DNA of 64,000 nt from an uncultured Chloroflexia bacterium. Lineage in GTDB: Bacteria; Chloroflexota; Limnocylindria; Limnocylindrales; CSP1-4. Under the pieces are notes generated by a model that worked only from the letters and a program-made list of their open reading frames with translations, was not told the DNA's origin and ran no database searches. The stretch covers positions 1,025,980 to 1,089,979 of the forward strand of contig CAWFCG010000003.1 in the NCBI GenBank assembly GCA_963814315.1, read 5' to 3'. How positions within the stretch are numbered: position 1 is the stretch's first letter; every line of letters starts with the position of its first letter. This document shows, piece by piece, positions 33,242 through 48,885 of the stretch. Position numbers and translations under genes: made by a program.

Positions 33242-34360
33242 TCAGCTGAGAGCGGCTCGCTCTGCTGTCACGTCATGCATCGGTCGCGCACTCGATCCGT
33301 AGCGAGCAGCCAAGATCTCAGCCATGATCGCCACGGCCGTCTCTGCCGGCGCCCGCCCGCCCAGGTCAAGCCCGATGGGGCCTCGCACCCGATCGAGCTG
33401 TGCCTCACTCAGGCCGCCTGCTATCAGCCGCTCGCGACGCTCGCGTTGGGTCTTGCGACTACCGATCGCCCCGACGTAGCGACACCCGCGTTCCAGTCCC
33501 ACGCGCACCGCGGGGTCATCGAACTTGGGATCATGGCTCAGCACCACCAGCGCATCGAGAGGGCCGAGGTCGATGGTGTCGGCGACCTCGTCGGGCCAGC
33601 CCTCGATGAGCTGGTCCACATCGGGGAACCGTTCCCGCGTGGCGAAGGCTCGGCGGCCGTCGATGACCACCGTTTCGTAGCCTAGCTCGCGAGCGAGCCG
33701 GACCAGCGCAGCGCCAACAGCCACCGCCCCCACGATGACCAGCCGCGGACGCACGGGGAAGACTTCAAGGAACAACTGCCGTCCAGTCAACTCGAACACG
33801 CGCGAGGTCCCACGGGACAGCGCCGCGAGGCTGGCCTCGATCAGGGCGCCATCCGCACCATCATCACCAAGTGTGCCATCGAGTCGGCCGTCCTGGTACA
33901 CGACGAGCGTCGCGCTGGAGGGCGCCGACGGACCCAGAAGCGATGGGCCTGAGATGGGTTCGGGAGAGCCGTGGGGCAGTACGGTCACTACCACCCGCCC
34001 GCTGTCGCGCCCGACGGCGGTGGCCCTGGCGGCATCGATGGCTGCTGACGGGACGGCCGGCTGTACGAGCACATCGATCGTCCCACCACACGCGAGCCCC
34101 ACCTCCCAAGCCTGCGCGTCGCTGACGCCGAAGCGCACCACGCGCTGCTCACCGGTCTGGCGTGCCTCGGCCATGCGGTCAGCCGTTGCCCCTTCGACGC
34201 AGCCACCGCTGACCGAGCCTTCGATGCGGCCGTCGGCGGCCAGCAGCATCACCGCTCCCTCTCGGCGGGGCGAGGAGCCGTAGGTCCGGATCACCACGGC
34301 CCGGGCAACCGCCACACCATCGGCGAACCAGCTCTCCAGGACCGGCAACAGCTCGTTCAT
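33242..34360 (-). CDS. XdhC/CoxI-family molybdoenzyme maturation factor
   Basis: Has an XdhC N-domain and a Rossmann-like C-domain (RLVIVGAVAVGAALVRLARELGYETVVID). Confidence 0.7.
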   Translation of the reverse strand: MNELLPVLESWFADGVAVARAVVIRTYGSSPRREGAVMLLAADGRIEGSVSGGCVEGATADRMAEARQTGEQRVVRFGVSDAQAWEVGLACGGTIDVLVQPAVPSAAIDAARATAVGRDSGRVVVTVLPHGSPEPISGPSLLGPSAPSSATLVVYQDGRLDGTLGDDGADGALIEASLAALSRGTSRVFELTGRQLFLEVFPVRPRLVIVGAVAVGAALVRLARELGYETVVIDGRRAFATRERFPDVDQLIEGWPDEVADTIDLGPLDALVVLSHDPKFDDPAVRVGLERGCRYVGAIGSRKTQRERRERLIAGGLSEAQLDRVRGPIGLDLGGRAPAETAVAIMAEILAARYGSSARPMHDVTAERAALS

Positions 34361-35661
34361 GCCACGACTCCGATACGGGGCGAGGTCGCTCCGGGGTGGC
34401 GGTGCACTCGTGGCTGGCCATTGCGGTCGGGCCTCCGACTGCGATGGTCGGCCATCTCCGCCAGCAGCTCGCCCAGGCGCTGCAGTGAGGCCAGGTCGTT
34501 GACCGCCACCAGGTCATCGATGAAGGGGTAGGCGGCAGCCATACCACCGGCGAGTGGCTGATAGTACTCGGTGCCGGCCAGCGGATCCAGCCAGATCAGG
34601 CGGTGACAGCTGCGCTGCAGTCGGGACATCTCCGATCGCACCAGACCCGGGTCACCACGGTCCCAGCCGTCCGACACCACGATGACGACGCCACTGGAGC
34701 GCAGCGTCCGGCGCGCCCAGCCGCGGTTGAATTGCCGCAGTGATTCACCGATGCGAGTCCCACCCGACCAGTCGGACACAGCTGCGGTGACCCGCGACAA
34801 TCCGACGTCCGGATCACGCCCCGTCAGCTCGTGGGTCACGCGTGTGAGGTGCGTGCCGAAGACGAAGGCTTCGGTGCGCACGGCCGACACGCGATGCAGG
34901 GCCATGGCGAAGCGGATGAGCAGGCGTGAATGGCGCTCCATGGAGCCACTGACGTCACAGATGACGGTGATGGAGCGCGGCCGCATCGCGGGGCGGCGCC
35001 ACAGCCACTCGACGAGGTCGCCGCCGTTCTGCAGGTTGGCCCGGAACATCTGCCGCGTCGCCACCTGCCTGCCATGGCGGTGCAACTCCTGCCGTCGCGC
35101 ACGGCGCATCTCCAGTCGTGGCCGCACCTGGTCGACCAAGCGCTCAGCGTCACGCAGCTCGTCGGGACTCATGCGGTCGAAGGGCTTATGCAGCAGTCGC
35201 TCACGCTCGCTCCAGGAGAGCGAGGCGGCGGCCTCCTCGTCAAGCGTGGTTCCATCGCTATCGGCTGCGTCGGCATCGCTCGCGACACCCGCCACCTCGT
35301 CCGCACCGTCGGCCCCAGCGGCTTCGACCTGGCCCGCCTGCTCGTGCGCCCCTGCCCCGGCCTCGATCTGCAAGTCCGGGGCCATCGGGTCGATGGTCAG
35401 CTCATAGCGTTGCCAGAAGCGCGCGAAGATCTCGTCGTAGATCGGCACCTCATCACGGCGTCGGACGAAGATGGCGAGACCGGCGGCGCGCACCTGTTCA
35501 CGATCGCCGATGTCGATGAGCGTCAGTGCGCGCGAATAGTCGATGGCGGCGCCGATGTCGGTGGTGATGCCGCCCGTACGCAAGGCACGCGTGAACAGCA
35601 GCGCATTCCAGAAGAAGGCGCGACCCGAGACGCCGGCGACTGCTGTGCTCGCTCCGGTCAA
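34357..35661 (-). CDS. vWA-domain protein, CoxE-like
   Basis: Carries the MIDAS motif VICDVSGSM plus downstream VSDG. It overlaps the neighbouring genes by 4 nt. Confidence 0.7.
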   Translation of the reverse strand: MTGASTAVAGVSGRAFFWNALLFTRALRTGGITTDIGAAIDYSRALTLIDIGDREQVRAAGLAIFVRRRDEVPIYDEIFARFWQRYELTIDPMAPDLQIEAGAGAHEQAGQVEAAGADGADEVAGVASDADAADSDGTTLDEEAAASLSWSERERLLHKPFDRMSPDELRDAERLVDQVRPRLEMRRARRQELHRHGRQVATRQMFRANLQNGGDLVEWLWRRPAMRPRSITVICDVSGSMERHSRLLIRFAMALHRVSAVRTEAFVFGTHLTRVTHELTGRDPDVGLSRVTAAVSDWSGGTRIGESLRQFNRGWARRTLRSSGVVIVVSDGWDRGDPGLVRSEMSRLQRSCHRLIWLDPLAGTEYYQPLAGGMAAAYPFIDDLVAVNDLASLQRLGELLAEMADHRSRRPDRNGQPRVHRHPGATSPRIGVVA

Positions 35662-35665
35662 GGCG

Positions 35666-36568
35666 TCAGGCTACCTCAGAGGCGGTCTCTGCGAGGTAGG
35701 CCGCAGCAGTCGCTCCCCGGATGGCACGCACATCCTCTTCATACTTCAGCACCACGCCGAGCGTATCATCGACGACGTCCGCGGTGAGCCGGCCGGCGCC
35801 CAGGGCCAGCAGGGCGGCGGCCCAGTCGATGGTCTCCGCCACGCCGGGCACCTTGGTCAGATGGCCCGCGCGCAGGCGCTGCACGAAGGCGACGATGGCC
35901 GCGGCCAGCCGCTCGGGCGTCTCAGGCACTCGCGCCAGCACGATCTCGTACTCACGCGCGGCGTCCGGATAGTCGATCCAGTGGTAGAGGCAGCGACGCT
36001 TCAGCGCATCGTGGACCTCCCGCGTGCGGTTCGACGTCAGCACCACCCGCGGTGGCTGCTCAGCCCGCACCGTCCCCACTTCAGGGATGGTCACCTGGAA
36101 GTCGGAGAGGATCTCCAGCAGGAAGGCCTCGAACTCCTCGTCGGCACGGTCGATCTCATCGATGAGCAGCACCGGTGGCACGCCCTCATCGGCCTCCAGC
36201 GCCTGCAGCAATGGCCGCTTCAGCAGGAACCTCGGAGCGAAGATGTCGTGTGCCCGAGCGTCGTCCAGCTTGCCCTGCGCCTCCAGCAGCCGGATCTCCA
36301 GCATCTGCCGTGGATAGTTCCACTCGTAGACCGCAGTGTTGACGTCCAGGCCCTCATAACACTGCAAACGGATGAGCCGGGCGCCCAGGGTGGCGGCGAG
36401 GACCTTGGCTAGCTCCGTCTTGCCCACGCCGGCCTCCCCTTCGAGCAGCAGCGGGCGACCCAGCCGCAAGCCCAGGAAGACCGAAGTGACAAGGGCTCGG
36501 TCAGCCACGTAGTCGAGATCATGGAACGCGGCTTGCAGGCCGTCGATGGTGTCAGGATGGTGGGGCAT
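35666..36568 (-). CDS. MoxR-family AAA+ ATPase, CoxD-like
   Basis: Walker A GEAGVGKT and Walker B LLIDEIDRA. It is about 300 aa, as is typical for MoxR. Confidence 0.8.
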   Translation of the reverse strand: MPHHPDTIDGLQAAFHDLDYVADRALVTSVFLGLRLGRPLLLEGEAGVGKTELAKVLAATLGARLIRLQCYEGLDVNTAVYEWNYPRQMLEIRLLEAQGKLDDARAHDIFAPRFLLKRPLLQALEADEGVPPVLLIDEIDRADEEFEAFLLEILSDFQVTIPEVGTVRAEQPPRVVLTSNRTREVHDALKRRCLYHWIDYPDAAREYEIVLARVPETPERLAAAIVAFVQRLRAGHLTKVPGVAETIDWAAALLALGAGRLTADVVDDTLGVVLKYEEDVRAIRGATAAAYLAETASEVA

Positions 36569-42120: not shown

Positions 42121-42861
42121 TCAGCGAGCGCTGGCGCGTGGCTCCAACATGTGGTCGGGACGTGCCTGAGCTGGCGCTGCTGGCGGGGGAGATGCTGCGG
42201 ACCGCTTGGCCACCACCGACAACACGATGCGATACACGAACAGGAACACCACGATGGTCGTCATCACCAGGTAACCCAGGAAGACCCAGGCGGCCTGTGT
42301 GTCCGAGCCAGCCATGAGCCCGTGGACCGTAGCGCCCAGGAACGCCAGGAATGACAGGTAGTGCACACGTCGCCAAGCTGGGGCACCGATGCGCTTCTTC
42401 ACGTAGAAGCTCAACAGCACCAGCAGCGTGATGGCCAGCGTGATCTGTCCGATGCCGACCCAGAGCGGCCGATACGGACCACTGAACGGGATGAGCACCT
42501 CCAGGGGGCTATAGGGCACGCTGCGGTCGATCATCAGGACTGCGACATGGACGAGCGCGAGTGCCAGACCGATCGACGAAAGGTCCTGGTGCAGCGTGAA
42601 CGAGACTGCGCGATGGGCGATGCGATCAAGGATCTTGGTCGAGAGTAGCAACCCATAGACCACCGAGCCGGTGAGCGCGAGATACGCCAGCAGCGCACTG
42701 ATCCGCGTCACGTACCAGGGCAGGCGCTCGTACTCCTCGCCTAGCCAACGACCGACCGACGCAGCTGCCGAGCCACCGGTGCCGGCGAGCACGATGGCGA
42801 CGATGCCGAGGAACAGCCCCCAGCGCAGCGGACGAGTCCATGCGTGCATGCCTTGGTACAT
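42121..42861 (-). CDS. ferric-reductase-like transmembrane domain protein (heme-b-binding, MsrQ/YedZ-like)
   Basis: Six predicted TM helices carry paired His residues (HQDLSSIGLALALVHV and HYLSFLAFLGATVHG). Confidence 0.55.
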   Translation of the reverse strand: MYQGMHAWTRPLRWGLFLGIVAIVLAGTGGSAAASVGRWLGEEYERLPWYVTRISALLAYLALTGSVVYGLLLSTKILDRIAHRAVSFTLHQDLSSIGLALALVHVAVLMIDRSVPYSPLEVLIPFSGPYRPLWVGIGQITLAITLLVLLSFYVKKRIGAPAWRRVHYLSFLAFLGATVHGLMAGSDTQAAWVFLGYLVMTTIVVFLFVYRIVLSVVAKRSAASPPPAAPAQARPDHMLEPRASAR

Positions 42862-43812
42862 CTAGACCAACCACCTGTCTGCACCCTCCGGGGCGATGAG
42901 CTCGCCACGCTCCAGCAGCAGGAACGCAGCGTCTGCCCTGGCGTGCTCGAGCAACCGCAGGCCGGCGTCCGAGCCGCTGATGACCACGGCCTTGGCGAGT
43001 GCCTCAGCGGTCAAGGCGTCGCCCGCCACGACCGTGGCCTGGACGACGTCGGTCTCAGCGGGGCACCCGGTGCGCGGGTCGATGAGATGGTGCGCCCAGC
43101 CCGCGTCTCGCTGCCAACGATGCACGCTCGTGCCGGACGTGGCGATGCCGAGGACGCTGGCGGCGTCCGACGTCGGCGAGATGACGGCCAGATCCGTCGT
43201 GCTCGTGCGCGGGTCTGCGATGGCGACGGCCCAATCGGACGGCGGGCCGCCGTTCGCTTCCCGGCGCCAGGCTACGTCACCATCAGCATCCACCATCGCG
43301 ATCGGATAGCGGCCCAAGAGCGCCAGCGCTCGGTCAGCGATCCAGCCCTTACCCACGCCATCGAGGTCAAAGGCCGCGTTCAGCACCCGTTCTAGGCGAT
43401 GACGGCGACCGGACCGGGCGACGGACCAACTGCCGGCGACCGAAGTGAACGGATCACCGGATTCGGCCGACAGCCTGGCGTCGAGCAAGGTGATGTCGAC
43501 CAGTCCACTGGTGAGTCGGGACATCTCTCGCGAACGCTCCAGCAGGGTGCCCATGGTCGGACCCACCAGCACCTCGGCGCGCGGATCATCATTGAGTCGC
43601 CTGAGCTCTGAACCAGCATCGAAGCGGGTGAGTCGGCTCGCCCAATTCTGGATGCGACCCGCCGCCAGCCGCAGATCGCGCTCGGCCATGCGCTCCGAGC
43701 CAGGTGGCCCCGCGACACGCATCGTGACCCATCCGCCCATGGCCGCGAACCGCATCGACCGTTCAACGAGCCCCACCCTGGTGACCGTGGCGTCGGGGGC
43801 GATCGTGGTCAC
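42862..43812 (-). CDS. apbE: FAD:protein FMN transferase (ApbE/Ftp family)
   Basis: The motif DLDGVGKGWIADRA matches the ApbE DxxGxxKGxxxD signature, along with overall ApbE-like sequence. Confidence 0.75.
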   Translation of the reverse strand: MTTIAPDATVTRVGLVERSMRFAAMGGWVTMRVAGPPGSERMAERDLRLAAGRIQNWASRLTRFDAGSELRRLNDDPRAEVLVGPTMGTLLERSREMSRLTSGLVDITLLDARLSAESGDPFTSVAGSWSVARSGRRHRLERVLNAAFDLDGVGKGWIADRALALLGRYPIAMVDADGDVAWRREANGGPPSDWAVAIADPRTSTTDLAVISPTSDAASVLGIATSGTSVHRWQRDAGWAHHLIDPRTGCPAETDVVQATVVAGDALTAEALAKAVVISGSDAGLRLLEHARADAAFLLLERGELIAPEGADRWLV

Positions 43813-44222
43813 CCCGACTGGCGCGTCCGGGTCACGACCCGCACGCTGCTCCTGCTGCTGGGGCTACTGACGGTCGGAGGCGACACGCGCTGCACCACGA
43901 TCCGCGGTGTGGGGGCCGCCTCGCGGATGACGCGCGCGCCCTTGGGTGCCTTCTGTCCGGGTTTGAGTCGTACGTACTGGACGGGACGATCGACCTTCTG
44001 CCGGACACGCTCGACCTTTGGCTCAGGCGGCGCCGGGGCCGCCGCATCAGTGGACAGCGGGAAACGCACCAGGCCGGCTCCGATCACGGTCACCGCGGCG
44101 AGGGCACCGGCGCCGACCATCATGCGGGCTGCGGTCGGAGACGGCCGACCCCGACCGGCTCCGGGCGTTCGTGCCCCCGGCGGGGCCCCGGCCCCAGCGG
44201 GCGGATCGGAGGGTGTCATCAA
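43809..44222 (-). CDS. small membrane-anchored Pro/basic-rich protein, hypothetical
   Basis: 137 aa with one N-terminal TM helix and 4-nt overlaps on both sides. Confidence 0.45.
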   Translation of the reverse strand: MMTPSDPPAGAGAPPGARTPGAGRGRPSPTAARMMVGAGALAAVTVIGAGLVRFPLSTDAAAPAPPEPKVERVRQKVDRPVQYVRLKPGQKAPKGARVIREAAPTPRIVVQRVSPPTVSSPSSRSSVRVVTRTRQSG

Positions 44223-44668
44223 TCGTCGTCCTCGCGCTCGTTCTCACGCTGTTCCTTGGCCCGCTCGGCCTTCTGCTCAGCAGCGTGCTCGCGTCGCTCG
44301 GCAGCATCTTCAAGCGCGTGCTCGCGCCCCTCATCGTGCTCGTCGTCACCCTGGCTCGGCACTCGCCGAACGACCGTCGTCCGCGAGCCAGAAGAGGCTG
44401 CCTTGGCCGCAGGGGCCTGCTTCTTCAGCACGATGGTCTGAGGCGTGGGGGCCGGCTTGACGTACACGACCTCAGGCTCCAGCGGCGCCTCATTGGTGAG
44501 TTCGGGGTCCGCTCTGCCATCGGTAGCCAGGTCGCCGTCCAAGGCCACGGCTGCAGACTGGATCCCACCCGAACCGGGAACAGGCGCGAAGCCGGCCACG
44601 ACCAAACCGATGGTCAGGACGATGGTGGCCGCCACAGTGGCGACGACAAGAGCAAGACGCTGGGGCAT
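44219..44668 (-). CDS. small membrane-anchored protein with an acidic C-terminus, hypothetical
   Basis: 149 aa with an N-terminal TM helix (LALVVATVAATIVLTIGLVVAGF). It is the first gene of the apbE operon. Confidence 0.45.
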   Translation of the reverse strand: MPQRLALVVATVAATIVLTIGLVVAGFAPVPGSGGIQSAAVALDGDLATDGRADPELTNEAPLEPEVVYVKPAPTPQTIVLKKQAPAAKAASSGSRTTVVRRVPSQGDDEHDEGREHALEDAAERREHAAEQKAERAKEQRENEREDDD

Positions 44669-44818
44669 CGGGAGCCTCCGGGATGACGGGTCGAATGGGG
44701 ATGAGTCTCAGATGAGCCAGTTGCGCCGCCATGTGCCGCAGGTGTGAGTTCTCAAAGAAAGCGCGACAGGCTGCCTCGCACCATTGCGCAATCACGTCGC
44801 GACAGCGAGGATGCAGGG

Positions 44819-45499
44819 ATGCGTGTGCTGGTCGTCGAAGACGAAGTGAAGATCGCTCGGGCCATCGACCGCGTGCTGACGGCAGAGCGGTACTCCACGG
44901 ATGTGGCCGAAGACGGCGTCGGAGCGTTGGCGCTGGCTGCCGAGCATGACTACGACGTCATCCTGCTGGACCGCATGCTGCCGGACCTTGATGGCATCGA
45001 GGTCGTGCGTCTGCTCCGTTCCCGCGGCATCGGCACGCCCGTGCTCATGCTGACGGCGCTGGGTGGCCTCGATCATCGTGTGGAGGGTCTGGACAGCGGC
45101 GCCGACGACTACCTCGCCAAGCCCTTCGCCTTCAATGAGTTGCTGGCGCGCATCCGCGCACTCGCACGTCGCAGCCCAGCCCGGCCCAGCGAGACGCTGG
45201 TGGCCGGCGACCTGGTGCTCGACCCCACGCGGATCACCGTCTCGGTGGGGGACCACCGCGAGGACCTATCGGCACGTGAGTTCGCCCTGCTCACCTACCT
45301 GGTCCGCCACGAGGGAACGGTGGTCACGCGACAGCAGATCCTCGACGCCGTCTGGGGTGCCGAGCCGGATGTCTACAGCAACGTCGTCGACCTCTACGTG
45401 CACTACCTGCGCCGCAAGCTGGACGTCCTCGGTCGCCGGGACGCCCTCCGAACGGTGCGCGGGGTGGGCTACTCCCTGCGCATCGACGTCAGCACGTGA
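44819..45499 (+). CDS. OmpR-family response regulator
   Basis: Has a receiver domain (MRVLVVEDE...DVILLDRMLPDLDG) and a winged-helix C-terminus. The start is MRVLV, an ATG at 44819. Confidence 0.85.
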   Translation: MRVLVVEDEVKIARAIDRVLTAERYSTDVAEDGVGALALAAEHDYDVILLDRMLPDLDGIEVVRLLRSRGIGTPVLMLTALGGLDHRVEGLDSGADDYLAKPFAFNELLARIRALARRSPARPSETLVAGDLVLDPTRITVSVGDHREDLSAREFALLTYLVRHEGTVVTRQQILDAVWGAEPDVYSNVVDLYVHYLRRKLDVLGRRDALRTVRGVGYSLRIDVST

Positions 45500-46848
45500 G
45501 TTGGCTGCGTCCACCACGCGACCCGGCGTCGGCGCTGCTGTGGCGCGCGCGGCGACAAATCGCCAGCGTGACCCTGCTGATGGTGACCGCGCTGGTGGTG
45601 ATCGTCGGGGTGACGACCGCCGCGACGGCCATCGCGTTGATGCGCGAATTGGCCGACCGCGCCCTCGATGCAGCTGCTGCCGATGACCTGACACTCCACG
45701 AGCTTCTGGAAGGCGGTGAGAGCTATGAATACACCGGCCCCCTGGGCGTCGCCGACACATTCGTCATGCTGGTGGATGCTGATGGGAACGTCTACGGCAA
45801 CACGAGCGCAGCCACTCTGGACGGACTACCGGACTTGACGGCTCTGGCACAGTCTCAGCGCGCACCCGACCGTCGGACCGGCCGATATGGCGACACCGAC
45901 CTCCGCCTGTTGACGACCAAGCTGGGGTCAGCTGAGATCGACGATGAGCTCGAAGATGAGACCGGCGCTACGACCACGCTCTATCTGCAGGCTGGGCACG
46001 ACCTCTCGTTGCAGCATCAGCTGGAGCGCCAATTGCTCCTGGCCATCGGCATCATCGGAATGCTCGGCATCGCGGGTGCCGTCGTGGTGACCCTGTTCGT
46101 CACCCGTCGCGCGCTCATCCCCATCCGCGAGGCATTCGACACGGAGCGGCGCTTCGTGGCCGCCGCTTCCCACGAGCTTCGAACGCCGGTCGCTATCATC
46201 CGGGCCTCGGCCGAGATCCTCGAACGCGAGCACCTCGTCGAGGCCGGGGGTGCACCACTGGTAGAAGACATCGTGGGTGAAGCCGACCGCATGGGCCGGC
46301 TCGTGGGCGACCTCATGGCCCTTGCCTCCGCCCAGACCGAGGCCATCCACATGGACATCATGAGCCTGGATCCTGTCACCTACTTCGAGGACATCTCTCG
46401 CCGATCGGCCGCCATCGCCGAAGCTCGCGGGATCGCCCTGGAGGTGTCGGCGTCGGACCGGGGGTCGGGCATGGTCATCAACGCCGACCCCGATCGCCTC
46501 GATCAATTGCTGCTCATCCTCGTGGACAACGCCATCCGGCATTCGCCGCCCGGAGGAACCGTGCGCATGGTCCTGGCCATCGTGCCTTCGGCCGCGTTGG
46601 CAACGTTCTCGGTCGTCGACGATGGCCCTGGGCTCCGCGCCGAGGAGATAGAGCGGATCTTCGAGCCCTTCGAGCGCGGAGACGCATCGCGGCGGTCTGG
46701 CGCTGGAGCGGGCCTCGGATTGACCATCGCGAGGCAGCTGGCGCAACGCCAGGATGCCCGGTTGGAGGCGGAGAACGAACCGGGACACGGCGCCGCGTTC
46801 CGTTTGCGCATGCCCCTTCGAGGCAGGCCAACGGCCCGTGCCAGCTAG
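45496..46848 (+). CDS. sensor histidine kinase
   Basis: Two TM helices, the HisKA H-box AASHELRTP and an HATPase_c domain. It overlaps the response regulator as GTGA. Confidence 0.8.
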   Translation: MSWLRPPRDPASALLWRARRQIASVTLLMVTALVVIVGVTTAATAIALMRELADRALDAAAADDLTLHELLEGGESYEYTGPLGVADTFVMLVDADGNVYGNTSAATLDGLPDLTALAQSQRAPDRRTGRYGDTDLRLLTTKLGSAEIDDELEDETGATTTLYLQAGHDLSLQHQLERQLLLAIGIIGMLGIAGAVVVTLFVTRRALIPIREAFDTERRFVAAASHELRTPVAIIRASAEILEREHLVEAGGAPLVEDIVGEADRMGRLVGDLMALASAQTEAIHMDIMSLDPVTYFEDISRRSAAIAEARGIALEVSASDRGSGMVINADPDRLDQLLLILVDNAIRHSPPGGTVRMVLAIVPSAALATFSVVDDGPGLRAEEIERIFEPFERGDASRRSGAGAGLGLTIARQLAQRQDARLEAENEPGHGAAFRLRMPLRGRPTARAS

Positions 46849-47372
46849 GCGAGCCGCCCTAGCAGCCGCCGCTCGAGCGATCGCATGGCCGCTCCCTCCT
46901 CCGGCTCGGCATGGTCCCAGCCGCAGAGGTGCAGCCCGCCGTGGGTGATGAGCAGGCGTAGCTCGTCAGCCGGCGCCCAGGTGCGATCGCTGGACTGCCC
47001 ACCGGCGCCTGACTCGGCCTGCTCGATGGCACGCTCCACCGAGACGATGATGTCGCCCAGGTGGGGCGACGCGCCGGGTGGCAGCGGGAATACCGCGACG
47101 GCTTGGCGCAAAGCCGGGTCCTGGCCGGGATGTGGCGGGAAAGATGATGGCGGCAGCATCGGGAACGAGAGCACGTCAGTGGGCCCGTCCTTGCCCAAGT
47201 GTGCCTCGTTCAACGATGCCAGCTCAACGTCATCGCTGAGGGTCAGTGTCACCGTGGCCATCTCGGGTGCACCGGCAGCCAACACGGCGGCCTCCAGCAC
47301 ACGCTGACACTCATCGCTCGGCAGGATGTCGGCGATACCGGGTCGCCGCACGACCTCGACCGTCAGCGCCAC
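46845..47372 (-). CDS. ybeY: rRNA maturation endoribonuclease YbeY
   Basis: Carries the metal-binding motif HGGLHLCGWDH. The probable GTG start at 47372 lies 12 nt after the upstream stop. The ORF-track N-terminal extension is spurious. Confidence 0.75.
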   Translation of the reverse strand: MALTVEVVRRPGIADILPSDECQRVLEAAVLAAGAPEMATVTLTLSDDVELASLNEAHLGKDGPTDVLSFPMLPPSSFPPHPGQDPALRQAVAVFPLPPGASPHLGDIIVSVERAIEQAESGAGGQSSDRTWAPADELRLLITHGGLHLCGWDHAEPEEGAAMRSLERRLLGRLA

Positions 47373-47385
47373 GTCAGCCGCGGCG

Positions 47386-48885
47386 TCAAGCGCCCTTCTT
47401 CTCCAAGGAGCGGCGCGATTCCAGCTCCACGATCTTGTTGGTGGGATAGGCGATGCGGCGGTGGTACATGGCCAGCAGCTGCTCGATGAACGACTCCCGG
47501 GTGCGATCGAGGTCACGCAACGTGAGGTCGCACTCGTCGAACTGGCCATCGATCAGCCGATCGCTGATGATGCGCGAGACCATGGCGCGGACGGCCGGCT
47601 CCTCATGGCTGGACAGGGATCGCACCGACGCCTCCACGCTGTCGGCCAGCATGAGGATGGCGGCCTCACGCGTCTGCGGCTTGGGTCCGGCGTGGCGGAA
47701 GCGTCGCTGGTCGACCTTGTCCGCAGCCTCGGTGGCGGCTGCAGAACCAACCGGCGCACCCGACTCCTCAGCCGCGATCTGGCGAGCCTTGGCGTAGAAG
47801 TAGCCCATCAGGGCGGTGCCGTGGTGCTGCGGGATGTAAGGGATGATGGCCTTGGGCAGCTTGTATTGGTAGGCGATGTCGATACCACGGGCGACATGGC
47901 CCATGACCATGGCCGCCGATTCCTCGGGTGCGAGTTGGTCATGGATGTTCTCGCCGCCGCCCTGGTTCTCGATGAACACCACGGGGTCGTACAATTTGCC
48001 CACGTCGTGGTAATAGGCAGCCACGCGGGTGACCAGCTCATCGGCACCGATGGCCTCGGCGGCCTGCTCGGCCAGGTTACCCACCATCAGTGAGTGGTGG
48101 TACGTGCCGGGCGCCTCCAGCAGCAGGCGTCGTAGCAGTGGCTGCGTCGGATTGGCCAGTTCCAGCAGCTGGTACGAAGTGGTGATGCCGAAGACCGAGC
48201 CCAGCAGGGCAAAGGTACCGGCCGCCGCGATCGACGCCCCAAAGGCAGAGATCAGCGCCGCGGCCAGGAGCTGCAGCGTCATCTCCATGTTCTCGGAGCC
48301 GACGATGATGGTGAAGGCCAGCACCACGGCCACATTGGTCACGGCGATGAACGCACCGGCCTGCGCGAATTGCGAGAGCCGCTCCCCGCGGCCGATGACG
48401 ATGGTGCCCACGATGCCGCCCAGGAATGTGTACGCAGCAAGGTCCATCGATCCGGTGACGACGCCGGCGAGGACCGCCACCATGGCCGTCGCCACACTGG
48501 CTAACCCAGCGTCGAGCAGGACCGCCAGCAACAGCCCGACCGCGGCCGTCGGCACCAGGTAGGGCGCCACGGCACGATCGGCCGTCGCTACCAGGAGGGC
48601 CGTTGCGGTCAGCAACGCGAGTGAGACCAGCAGGATGGCGTTGTTGCGATGCCACAGCCGCGAGCGGAAACGCCACAGCCACGCCAGCAGCGTGGTGACC
48701 ACGACGATCGACAGCAGCAGCCAGCCGAAGACCGCGACCACGTCGCTGACCTCCGTCATGGTGGTGAGGTCCTCGAAGGCGAGGACGAACGTCAGTCCCG
48801 CGACCAGCAACGTGGAGATCAGCCCCAGGCGGACAGCATCTCGCTTGGTGAAGGCGAGGATCTGGACCCCTCGGCGAGCCAACAT
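47386..48885 (-). CDS. 7TM receptor with an intracellular HD hydrolase domain (YqfF/PgpH-like)
   Basis: Has an N-terminal polytopic region and an HD domain (YHHSLMVGNLAE...YYHDVGK). Confidence 0.7.
   Translation of the reverse strand: MLARRGVQILAFTKRDAVRLGLISTLLVAGLTFVLAFEDLTTMTEVSDVVAVFGWLLLSIVVVTTLLAWLWRFRSRLWHRNNAILLVSLALLTATALLVATADRAVAPYLVPTAAVGLLLAVLLDAGLASVATAMVAVLAGVVTGSMDLAAYTFLGGIVGTIVIGRGERLSQFAQAGAFIAVTNVAVVLAFTIIVGSENMEMTLQLLAAALISAFGASIAAAGTFALLGSVFGITTSYQLLELANPTQPLLRRLLLEAPGTYHHSLMVGNLAEQAAEAIGADELVTRVAAYYHDVGKLYDPVVFIENQGGGENIHDQLAPEESAAMVMGHVARGIDIAYQYKLPKAIIPYIPQHHGTALMGYFYAKARQIAAEESGAPVGSAAATEAADKVDQRRFRHAGPKPQTREAAILMLADSVEASVRSLSSHEEPAVRAMVSRIISDRLIDGQFDECDLTLRDLDRTRESFIEQLLAMYHRRIAYPTNKIVELESRRSLEKKGA

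Follow-up and report, generated by a model that had tools for sequence, protein, structure and literature searches.

Bacteria equip extracytosolic proteins with flavins mainly by ApbE flavinylation, and it has been reported that about 4% of the genomes with apbE still have no known substrate (PMC8238504). Here we ask which protein, if any, receives the flavin at a four-gene, minus-strand cassette (positions 42121-44668) in a 64,000-nucleotide stretch of DNA from an uncultured Chloroflexia bacterium (contig CAWFCG010000003.1, positions 1,025,980 to 1,089,979; this whole stretch is the window). The cassette encodes, in this order, two small bitopic proteins that we call P1 and P2, an ApbE-like flavin adenine dinucleotide (FAD):protein flavin mononucleotide (FMN) transferase, and a six-transmembrane (six-TM) cytochrome of the ferric reductase domain (FRD) type. 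A previous, sequence-only reading of this DNA had placed the cluster among those for extracytosolic electron transfer, an assignment that the ApbE match and the FRD-type cytochrome support, and had left either the small proteins or a distant gene as possible targets of flavinylation; both still stand, since the cassette has neither an FMN_bind domain nor the canonical motif. That reading recognized the coupled cassette and both of these absences; it missed a conserved [T/S]-x-Q-S-G motif in P2, an E/K pair at the active site of ApbE, and the ferredoxin and reductase genes of relatives. Our tentative answer is that the cassette is a regulated electron-export module in which ApbE puts FMN on a non-canonical site within the cassette, the best candidate being the C-terminal tail of P2.

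A coupled cassette conserved in Chloroflexota

All four genes were recovered, where they had been placed before, from the list of open reading frames (ORFs) and their translations. The earlier statement that each gene overlaps the next by 4 nt holds for two of the three junctions: P1 and P2 meet at TTGATGA (an overlap of 1 nt if ATG is taken as the P2 start), and P2 and ApbE overlap by 4 nt at GTGA. It fails for ApbE and FRD, where the TAG abuts the ATG without overlap. We found more than 150 homologues of P2 at E≤0.01 among 5.8 billion proteins, none of them with a Pfam domain, and a profile search of 1.84 billion cluster representatives (clustering at 50% identity) retrieved 179 at E≤1e-3. 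P1 gave few database matches, yet tblastn placed it directly upstream of P2 in every locus, and its start, a GGAG Shine-Dalgarno sequence and an ATG, is conserved. Because P2 homologues are numerous and P1 is kept upstream of P2 in every locus, P1 and P2 are both real genes. A competing 222-aa ORF on the plus strand (44018-44686), antisense to P1 and P2, has a coding-like G+C content at third codon positions (GC3, 0.77), but we rejected it, as its translation is Arg-rich and unconserved and the conservation lies entirely in the P1 and P2 frames. In this 68% G+C genome, GC3 alone mis-calls genes, as this ORF illustrates.

The 23 species-representative genomes that encode P2 are without exception metagenome-assembled genomes (MAGs) of Chloroflexota, labelled 'uncultured Chloroflexia' (Microflora Danica bins), Candidatus Limnocylindrales, Anaerolineae or Chloroflexota; the window likewise comes from a Chloroflexota MAG, of Limnocylindria type, and the Actinobacteria, guessed at previously, are the wrong taxon. 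In 23/23 genome loci the genes follow one another as P1-P2-ApbE-FRD. Furthermore, remote P2 homologues with longer Pro-rich regions stand in the same four-gene order, and ApbE homologues P0377 and P0386 (~47-50% identity) are likewise encoded downstream of P1 and P2 and upstream of FRD. Because the order is kept in all 23 loci and stop and start codons overlap at the junctions, we regard the module as a coupled set. One MAG (MFD09779.bin.2.43) has three cassettes (L007, L009 and L015), each with its own ApbE, which suggests functional diversification of the module. Two of these three have a two-component system (TCS), and the one without a TCS lies among sugar-uptake genes.

Many of the related MAG loci contain frameshifted genes (L009, L013, L014, L016, L021 and L026), in which Pth, ApbE or FRD is split. 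The frameshifts and apparent fusions are consistent with long-read assembly errors, and such fusion proteins should not be taken for domain fusions. Two P2-ApbE fusions (P0095 and P0292) were considered as Rosetta stones and discarded as frameshifted nanopore calls.

An invariant motif at the C-terminus of P2

The lack of a canonical acceptor, pointed out in the sequence-only reading for the two small proteins, extends well beyond them. Neither P1 nor P2 matches FMN_bind or any other Pfam or NCBIfam family. A Pfam scan found FMN_bind (PF04205) neither in the cassette proteins nor in 20 flanking genes of the window, and this domain is missing from all proteins of the window, the cassette included, and of 370 kb of related loci. 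No lineage has the usual flavinylation motif, D-x-x-[ST]-G-A-[ST], in its P1, P2 or FRD. The single match to this motif in the window (D-x-x-T-G-A-S at 35667, 5' of the TTG at which a CoxE-type VWA protein starts) was rejected as a chance match, lying at the VWA/MoxR junction and outside the start of the VWA ORF. The 370 kb of related loci hold four scattered, non-recurring matches in implausible reading frames, and no recurrent canonical motif was found within 5-9 kb of any cassette.

The P2 family does have a conserved motif at its end. QSG occurs at most 6 residues from the C-terminus in 245 of 262 family members, and the residue two before the Q is T (175) or S (70) in these 245, and nothing else, which gives a family consensus of [T/S]-x-Q-S-G with 0-4 residues after it. 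Q135, S136 and G137 are invariant in an alignment of 26 P2 sequences. Our best guess for a non-canonical ApbE acceptor is this P2 tail, because it is the sole invariant hydroxyl-bearing motif in the non-enzymatic partners, because its hydroxyls have the same i/i+3 spacing as those in [S/T]GA[S/T], because it forms a flexible terminus, the place at which ApbE modifies tags best, and because P2 is always immediately upstream of, and coupled to, ApbE. In P0011, P0038, P0040, P0065 and P0075 a second RQSG, without T or S two before the Q, lies ~14 residues upstream of the terminal one.

Other sites in the cassette proteins were considered and set aside. ASSGSRTT in P1, previously named as the nearest thing to a motif, falls in a stretch that the family alignment shows to be unconserved and was therefore rejected as a degenerate version of it. 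The last position of TGGS in loop 1 of FRD is variable, and LGAT (before H180) and MAGSDT, also in FRD, lie toward the outer side, within a TM helix or at its edge; none of the three looks like a site accessible to ApbE.

Architecture of the two small proteins

P1 has a 4-residue N-terminus with an invariant Arg, a signal-anchor (residues 5-27) and then an acidic linker. Its conserved core, EPEVVY[VI]KPAP.PKT[VI]V in the family alignment (residues 64-83, nt 44420-44479), is followed by a variable S/T/R-rich stretch and by an acidic and His-rich helical tail ending in DDD (nt 44222-44350). Throughout the family this tail is acidic, often rich in His or DDRYE, and terminates in DD(D); its composition resembles that of a putative cation-binding site. 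P2 is very basic and Pro-rich. An N-terminal RP[S/D]PRPAR (RP[D/S]PRP.R in the family) precedes the TM segment (nt 44067-44120) and a linker, after which comes the core RPV.YVRLKPGQKAPKGA.VIREAAPTPR.VV (nt 43884-43988). The corresponding family core is V.YV.LKPGQ.AP.GA.VI…AP.PR.VV, and a variable Pro-rich spacer leads from it to the C-terminal motif. From the charges flanking its TM segment, P2 is predicted to be N-in/C-out in 98% of 187 members, and the charges flanking the P1 anchor give P1 the same orientation. When the two families were compared by hhalign, only P-x-R-L and the TM segment aligned (probability 90%, 23 columns).

In AlphaFold2 (AF2) models, P1 consists of a helix (residues 3-24), an extended core with a predicted local distance difference test (pLDDT) score of 76-84, and a charged helix (residues 115-146). 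The P2 model has the TM helix (residues 29-48) only, with an extended core (pLDDT 74-86), and mean pLDDT is ~61 for both proteins. The check for an FMN_bind-like fold that had been proposed for the small proteins was thus run with AF2, and such a fold is ruled out by the TM helices and extended cores of the models and by the size of the conserved cores (at most 35 residues, against a domain of ~120 aa). Judging from the models, the extended cores of P1 and P2 probably fold on a partner.

A signal-less ApbE subfamily with an altered metal site

The enzyme matches Pfam ApbE (PF02424) at E=1.9e-39, with 136 bits against a cut-off of 25.6, and contains DLDGVGKGWIADR, which confirms its earlier identification; ApbE/Ftp chains in the PDB match it at E ~1e-12. 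Aligned to PDB entry 4ifu, it retains DLDGVGKGW, TSG and HHLIDPRTG. The conserved catalytic residues of ApbE enzymes are Ser, His and Asp, corresponding to S241, H257 and D285 of Vc_ApbE (reviewed in PMC12052999). The Ser (in TSG) and the His (in HHLIDP) are kept, and the position of the Asp is taken by Glu (E270) in the window protein and in 120/120 homologues. E270 (nt 43003-43005) and K274 (nt 42991-42993) align to D284 and T288 of Treponema pallidum Ftp, which we take to be Mg ligands. The motif AE.[LIMFY]AK, with E and K at these two positions, is found in all 120 ApbE homologues.

The sequence-only reading had described this ApbE as a periplasmic enzyme, and this did not hold: neither the window protein nor any of its 120 closest homologues has a signal peptide, a lipobox or a TM segment. 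The ApbE domain begins at most 46 residues from the N-terminus in nearly all of the 120, and their N-termini are far less hydrophobic than the anchors of P1 and P2. We rejected a signal peptide hidden behind an upstream start, as there is no in-frame start 5' of the GTG and the orthologues are without one too. Export by the Tat route, or by hitch-hiking on P1 or P2, was rejected as well, each of the small proteins having a single conserved Arg before its TM segment and no twin-arginine motif. By these alignments, the window ApbE belongs to a signal-less subfamily in which E...K replaces D...T at the presumed Mg-ligand positions. A second Pfam family, PF27030, is given in the precomputed annotation of some ApbE homologues (P0281, P0288, P0306, P0308 and others).

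A divergent diheme cytochrome and its possible electron supply

The 246-aa membrane protein had been described as ferric-reductase-like, with six TM segments and two His pairs, and we found six hydrophobic segments with the pairs H91/H105 (TM3, H-x13-H) and H167/H180 (TM5, H-x12-H), all four His being invariant in 14 homologues. Ferric_reduct (PF01794) matches the window protein with 22.2 bits (E=1.5e-4), below the 28-bit cut-off, and matches 14/14 family members at E≤0.01 (best 4.9e-7). In addition, the family profile weakly matches TM4-6 of PDB entries 8qq7 and 8qt6 (E ~1), a 399-aa 'FAD-binding FR-type domain-containing protein' that is presumably the Streptococcus pneumoniae NADPH oxidase (NOX), SpNOX. 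With these similarities we accept the protein as a likely divergent member of the FRD/MsrQ-like family. Its topology, N-in and C-in, is consistent with the positive-inside rule as judged from the distribution of charges, and the pairing of H91 with H167 and of H105 with H180 is predicted to form the classical FRD bis-heme arrangement. Two conserved loops of the 14 homologues are on the outer face, E-E-Y-E-R-L-P-W-Y and D-R-S-V-P-Y-S-P…P-F-S-G-P-Y-R-P.

A possible electron donor is encoded beside the cassettes of several relatives. Loci L028, L032 and L033 have, downstream of the cassette, genes for a 99-aa ferredoxin and a reductase with FAD_binding_6 and NAD_binding_1 domains; the same pair is downstream in L020, which is a Chloroflexota MAG, and lies in L034 and L035 inside the operon of the response regulator (RR) and histidine kinase (HK) instead. 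The Cys pattern of the 99-aa protein, as read by eye, suggests a ferredoxin of the 7Fe type.

A divergent two-component system

The divergent OmpR/HK pair noted upstream in the sequence-only reading is present at the positions given in Table 1. The RR has Response_reg and Trans_reg_C domains and the HK has HisKA and HATPase_c domains, as in the Pfam annotations of their orthologues, and the HK has two TM segments and an extracytoplasmic loop. The models closest to the RR are RppA (223 bits versus a cut-off of 250) and the CopR/CusR/SilR heavy-metal subfamily (207 versus 279 for CopR/SilR), and no equivalog cut-off is reached. A divergent RR/HK pair stands beside the cassette in 17/23 loci, and also in remote loci; at the other six (L010, L015, L017, L019, L023 and L027, paralogous copies) there is no TCS.

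Across 16 orthologous loci, the intergenic region between RR and P1 has conserved blocks, GCAA[TC]G, TTCTTTG[AG][GA]AACTCTCA, ACA.G, CAA[GC] and [GC]A[GC]ACT, which probably include the promoter and putative binding sites of the regulator. No match to the sigma-70 consensus was found in 44669-44818. Two weak hints, the acidic His-rich tail of P1 and the similarity of the RR to RppA and CopR/SilR, suggest that the outer electron acceptor might be a metal ion.

Proposed mechanism and alternative explanations

In the mechanism that we tentatively favour, the divergent OmpR/HK pair very probably controls expression, and the six-TM FRD/MsrQ-like cytochrome b, with its two bis-His hemes, very probably takes electrons from the cytoplasmic to the outer face of the membrane. 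Electrons would flow from NAD(P)H through a reductase like ferredoxin-NADP reductase (FNR) and a ferredoxin, the donor pair encoded in several relatives, to the inner heme, the outer heme and the outside. P1 and P2, both predicted to be N-in/C-out, would occupy the slot that a protein with an FMN_bind domain has in so-called MsrQ-like clusters; P1 would provide an acidic, His-rich tail that resembles a cation-binding site, and P2, basic and Pro-rich, a short and extended core for docking together with a tail that is flexible. ApbE would attach FMN to the invariant Ser (or to the Thr) of the P2 motif [T/S]-x-Q-S-G. As ApbE has no export signal, this modification would have to precede export of the tail and take place in the cytoplasm, and such cytoplasmic attachment would, if true, spare the export of FAD. 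The flavin, tethered to the membrane, could then be reduced by the outer heme and hand its electrons on to an acceptor outside, which might be a metal ion on P1. In its most specific form, which as a whole we hold to be unlikely, this mechanism makes P2 a new class of ApbE substrate, a disordered, Pro-rich anchored 'line' of variable length whose [T/S]-x-Q-S-G would carry covalent FMN added in the cytoplasm by the signal-less E/K ApbE, and whose tethered flavin would shuttle electrons of the outer heme across the envelope to metal ions bound by the P1 tail.

Several points weigh against the P2 tail as the acceptor. The serious one is a conflict of topology, the signal-less ApbE being predicted inside and the P2 tail outside; modification before export, an acceptor in a cytoplasmic loop of the cytochrome, or a changed function of the E/K enzyme would each be a way out. 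[T/S]-x-Q-S-G differs from the validated D-x-x-[S/T]-G-A-[S/T], and in the window P2 no residue follows the Gly of QSG. With E and K at its metal site, the enzyme may just as well have lost its transferase chemistry, or have it in altered form. Finally, we found no homologue of the relatives' ferredoxin and FNR-like reductase in the window, as a donor for the window cytochrome.

The topology would be accommodated by a cytoplasmic acceptor, with ApbE installing FMN on, or docking on, the cytochrome, and with P1 and P2 free of flavin, assisting on the outer face as accessory subunits in docking, assembly or the binding of metal. A flavin entry site would thereby be created by the inner heme, as in NOX and STEAP proteins. 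All ApbEs of the subfamily are predicted to be cytoplasmic, as is known of an ApbE in Klebsiella pneumoniae; the ApbE gene directly adjoins the FRD gene here and overlaps it in relatives; and cytoplasmic loop 2 of FRD has invariant S74, T75, S87 and T89 by the inner-heme His. However, these four residues are not in a context like [S/T]GA[S/T], the segments that hold them are conserved across the Ferric_reduct family generally, and ferredoxin can reduce heme without a flavin. A cytochrome acceptor would also leave the invariant P2 tail and the strict adjacency and coupling of P2 and ApbE unexplained. We consider it rather unlikely. The ApbE-like protein might, alternatively, no longer be a protein flavin transferase and serve as an FAD pyrophosphatase, a flavin chaperone or an FAD-holding cytoplasmic subunit of the cytochrome. 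Both presumed Mg-ligand positions are altered (Asp to Glu and Thr to Lys) in 120/120 homologues, no recognisable acceptor motif is present, and T. pallidum Ftp has FAD pyrophosphatase activity, which counts in favour of such a role. The catalytic His (HHLIDP) and Ser (TSG) are nevertheless kept, the third residue changes only from Asp to Glu, and the protein has no NAD(P)H-binding site for a part in electron input. A loss of transferase activity seems to us quite improbable.

Two further explanations would take P1 and P2 out of flavin chemistry or out of the redox module. ApbE substrates are sometimes unlinked, and a canonical one (FMN_bind, DUF2271 or NqrB/RnfD-type) might be encoded elsewhere in the genome, as the sequence-only reading had allowed, P1 and P2 then being unrelated to flavin. 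Against this stand ~30 cassettes, three of them in one MAG, each with its own ApbE, a fixed order and coupled translation; the absence of a recurrent canonical motif within 5-9 kb of any of them; and the E/K change and lack of a signal peptide throughout the subfamily, which argue for a dedicated and unusual partner. We regard an unlinked substrate as distinctly improbable. P1 and P2 might instead be accessory or signalling proteins of the neighbouring TCS, which is adjacent in 17/23 loci, and small bitopic proteins often accompany sensor kinases. They stay with ApbE and FRD in the six cassettes that have no TCS, however, and they are co-oriented and translationally coupled with ApbE rather than with RR and HK, and this explanation is very improbable indeed.

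Features of the locus and neighbouring genes

Table 1. Positions of the cassette, its predicted sites and control region, and of the donor genes in related loci (window coordinates unless a locus is named)
Feature	Position	Strand	Description
P1	44219..44668	-	149-aa bitopic protein; ORF translation
P2	43809..44222	-	137 aa from TTG, 136 aa from ATG (start in database copy P0001); bitopic, Pfam-less
P2 C-terminal T-R-T-R-Q-S-G	43812..43832	-	candidate non-canonical ApbE acceptor
ApbE-like FAD:protein FMN transferase	42862..43812	-	316 aa; Pfam ApbE
FRD/MsrQ-like six-TM diheme cytochrome b	42121..42861	-	246 aa
Predicted inner heme site	H91 (nt 42589-42591) + H167 (42361-42363)	-	near cytoplasm
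Predicted outer heme site	H105 (nt 42547-42549) + H180 (42322-42324)	-	near outside
Divergent intergenic control region	44669..44818	.	blocks GCAA[TC]G ... TTCTTTG[AG][GA]AA-CTCTCA ... [AC]ACA.G ... [GC]A[GC]ACT + P1 Shine-Dalgarno
OmpR-family response regulator	44819..45499	+	ATG start at 44819
Sensor histidine kinase	45496..46848	+	start overlaps RR stop by 4 nt
Ferredoxin + FNR-like reductase	L020 7255-8321		
Ferredoxin + FNR-like reductase	L028 3457-4559		
Ferredoxin + FNR-like reductase	L032 11150-12280		
Ferredoxin + FNR-like reductase	L033 11239-12349		
Ferredoxin + FNR-like reductase	L034 2666-3866		

The cassette is flanked by housekeeping genes, namely those for Mfd, Pth, YbeY, a 7TM-HD protein, MetK, AhcY and XdhC/CoxE/MoxR. 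The longest ORF for YbeY (46845-47549, minus strand) has 234 aa, and in more distant loci homology begins only at about residue 62-111; its start is probably placed too far upstream, or an N-terminal extension is common to close relatives. On the minus strand, 33242-36568 holds a coupled trio of XdhC (33242-34360), the CoxE-type VWA protein (34357-35661) and a MoxR/CoxD-type AAA ATPase (35666-36568). This arrangement is typical of the maturation of molybdenum hydroxylases and CO dehydrogenase, and no catalytic subunits were found among the genes scanned.

Significance and comparison with known systems

Clusters that join ApbE to FRD and serve extracytosolic electron transfer are already known as a general kind. 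Apparently undescribed here are the two partner families without a Pfam domain, the P2 tail [T/S]-x-Q-S-G, the ApbE subfamily that has the E/K pair and no signal peptide, and the split feed by ferredoxin and FNR-like reductase, and our literature search found no published description of this cluster or of a QSG-type motif. The cassette is a concrete and widespread candidate for the missing ApbE substrates, with 179 cluster representatives of P2 and three copies in one MAG, and the module seems to serve the abundant, uncultured Chloroflexota of soils as a main means of regulated electron export. An acceptor site in the P2 tail would mean a wider recognition rule for ApbE, a new minimal flavin tag and a route of the type 'attach inside, use outside'; if it is the cytochrome that accepts the FMN, this would be the first protein of the FRD fold known to be flavinylated covalently.

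The closest known systems are the 'MsrQ-like' flavinylation-associated clusters, which Méheust et al. (2021, eLife) predicted and did not characterise (PMC8238504). In these, a PF01794 gene is paired with apbE and an FMN-binding gene (PMC8238504). The published censuses relied on a Pfam-domain search and kept only clusters for which a signal peptide or a site of lipidation was predicted in ApbE, FMN_bind, DUF2271 or DUF3570 (PMC8238504), and the cassette is invisible to them because its ApbE has no signal peptide and its partners have no Pfam domain. Taken by the operational definition of MsrQ-like clusters, the cassette has a PF01794-type gene within five genes of apbE (the two are adjacent); ApbE is the sole gene of the cluster that qualifies for the signal peptide and is without one, and the gene for an FMN-binding domain, typical of such clusters and not obligatory, is absent. 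The two share a PF01794-type six-TM diheme protein with apbE and a proposed role in electron export, perhaps iron reduction. They differ in the NAD(P)H donor, which is a fused PF00175 domain in MsrQ-like clusters and a separate FNR-like protein with a ferredoxin, hence a split donor with a ferredoxin relay, in relatives of the cassette. Unlike MsrQ-like clusters, furthermore, the cassette has two Pfam-less, unfolded bitopic proteins in place of an FMN_bind gene, is linked to a TCS, and occurs in Chloroflexota rather than Actinobacteria.

With Escherichia coli MsrPQ (YedYZ) and bacterial NOX the cassette shares an FRD-fold cytochrome with His pairs in TM3 and TM5 and a path for electrons that starts at a flavin reductase in the cytoplasm and ends on the outer face, whereas it has neither a Mo enzyme of the MsrP type nor a fused FAD/NAD domain, its partners being small disordered proteins and ApbE. 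An ApbE without a secretion signal also has precedents. It has been reported that a cytoplasmic ApbE of K. pneumoniae and the ApbE domain of trypanosomatid fumarate reductases have no such signal and act inside the cell (PMC12052999). Their targets are soluble reductases with FMN_bind and the canonical motif, whereas the partners in the cassette are motif-less membrane proteins and the enzyme is of the E/K type. The FmnB/PplA system, which serves extracellular electron transfer in Listeria, and the DUF2271 and DUF3570 proteins provide the model of a tethered, flavinylated outer carrier, and such earlier substrates were found from the neighbourhoods of orphan apbE genes, as is proposed here; they have [S/T]GA[S/T] in a folded domain and a secreted ApbE, and P2 has neither feature. 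According to the citation of Tong et al. (2021) in PMC12052999, ApbE modifies the 7-residue peptide known as Flavin-tag, and does so best at a protein terminus. The tag, D-x-x-S-G-A-T/S, differs in sequence from the [T/S]-x-Q-S-G of P2, which lies at such a terminus.

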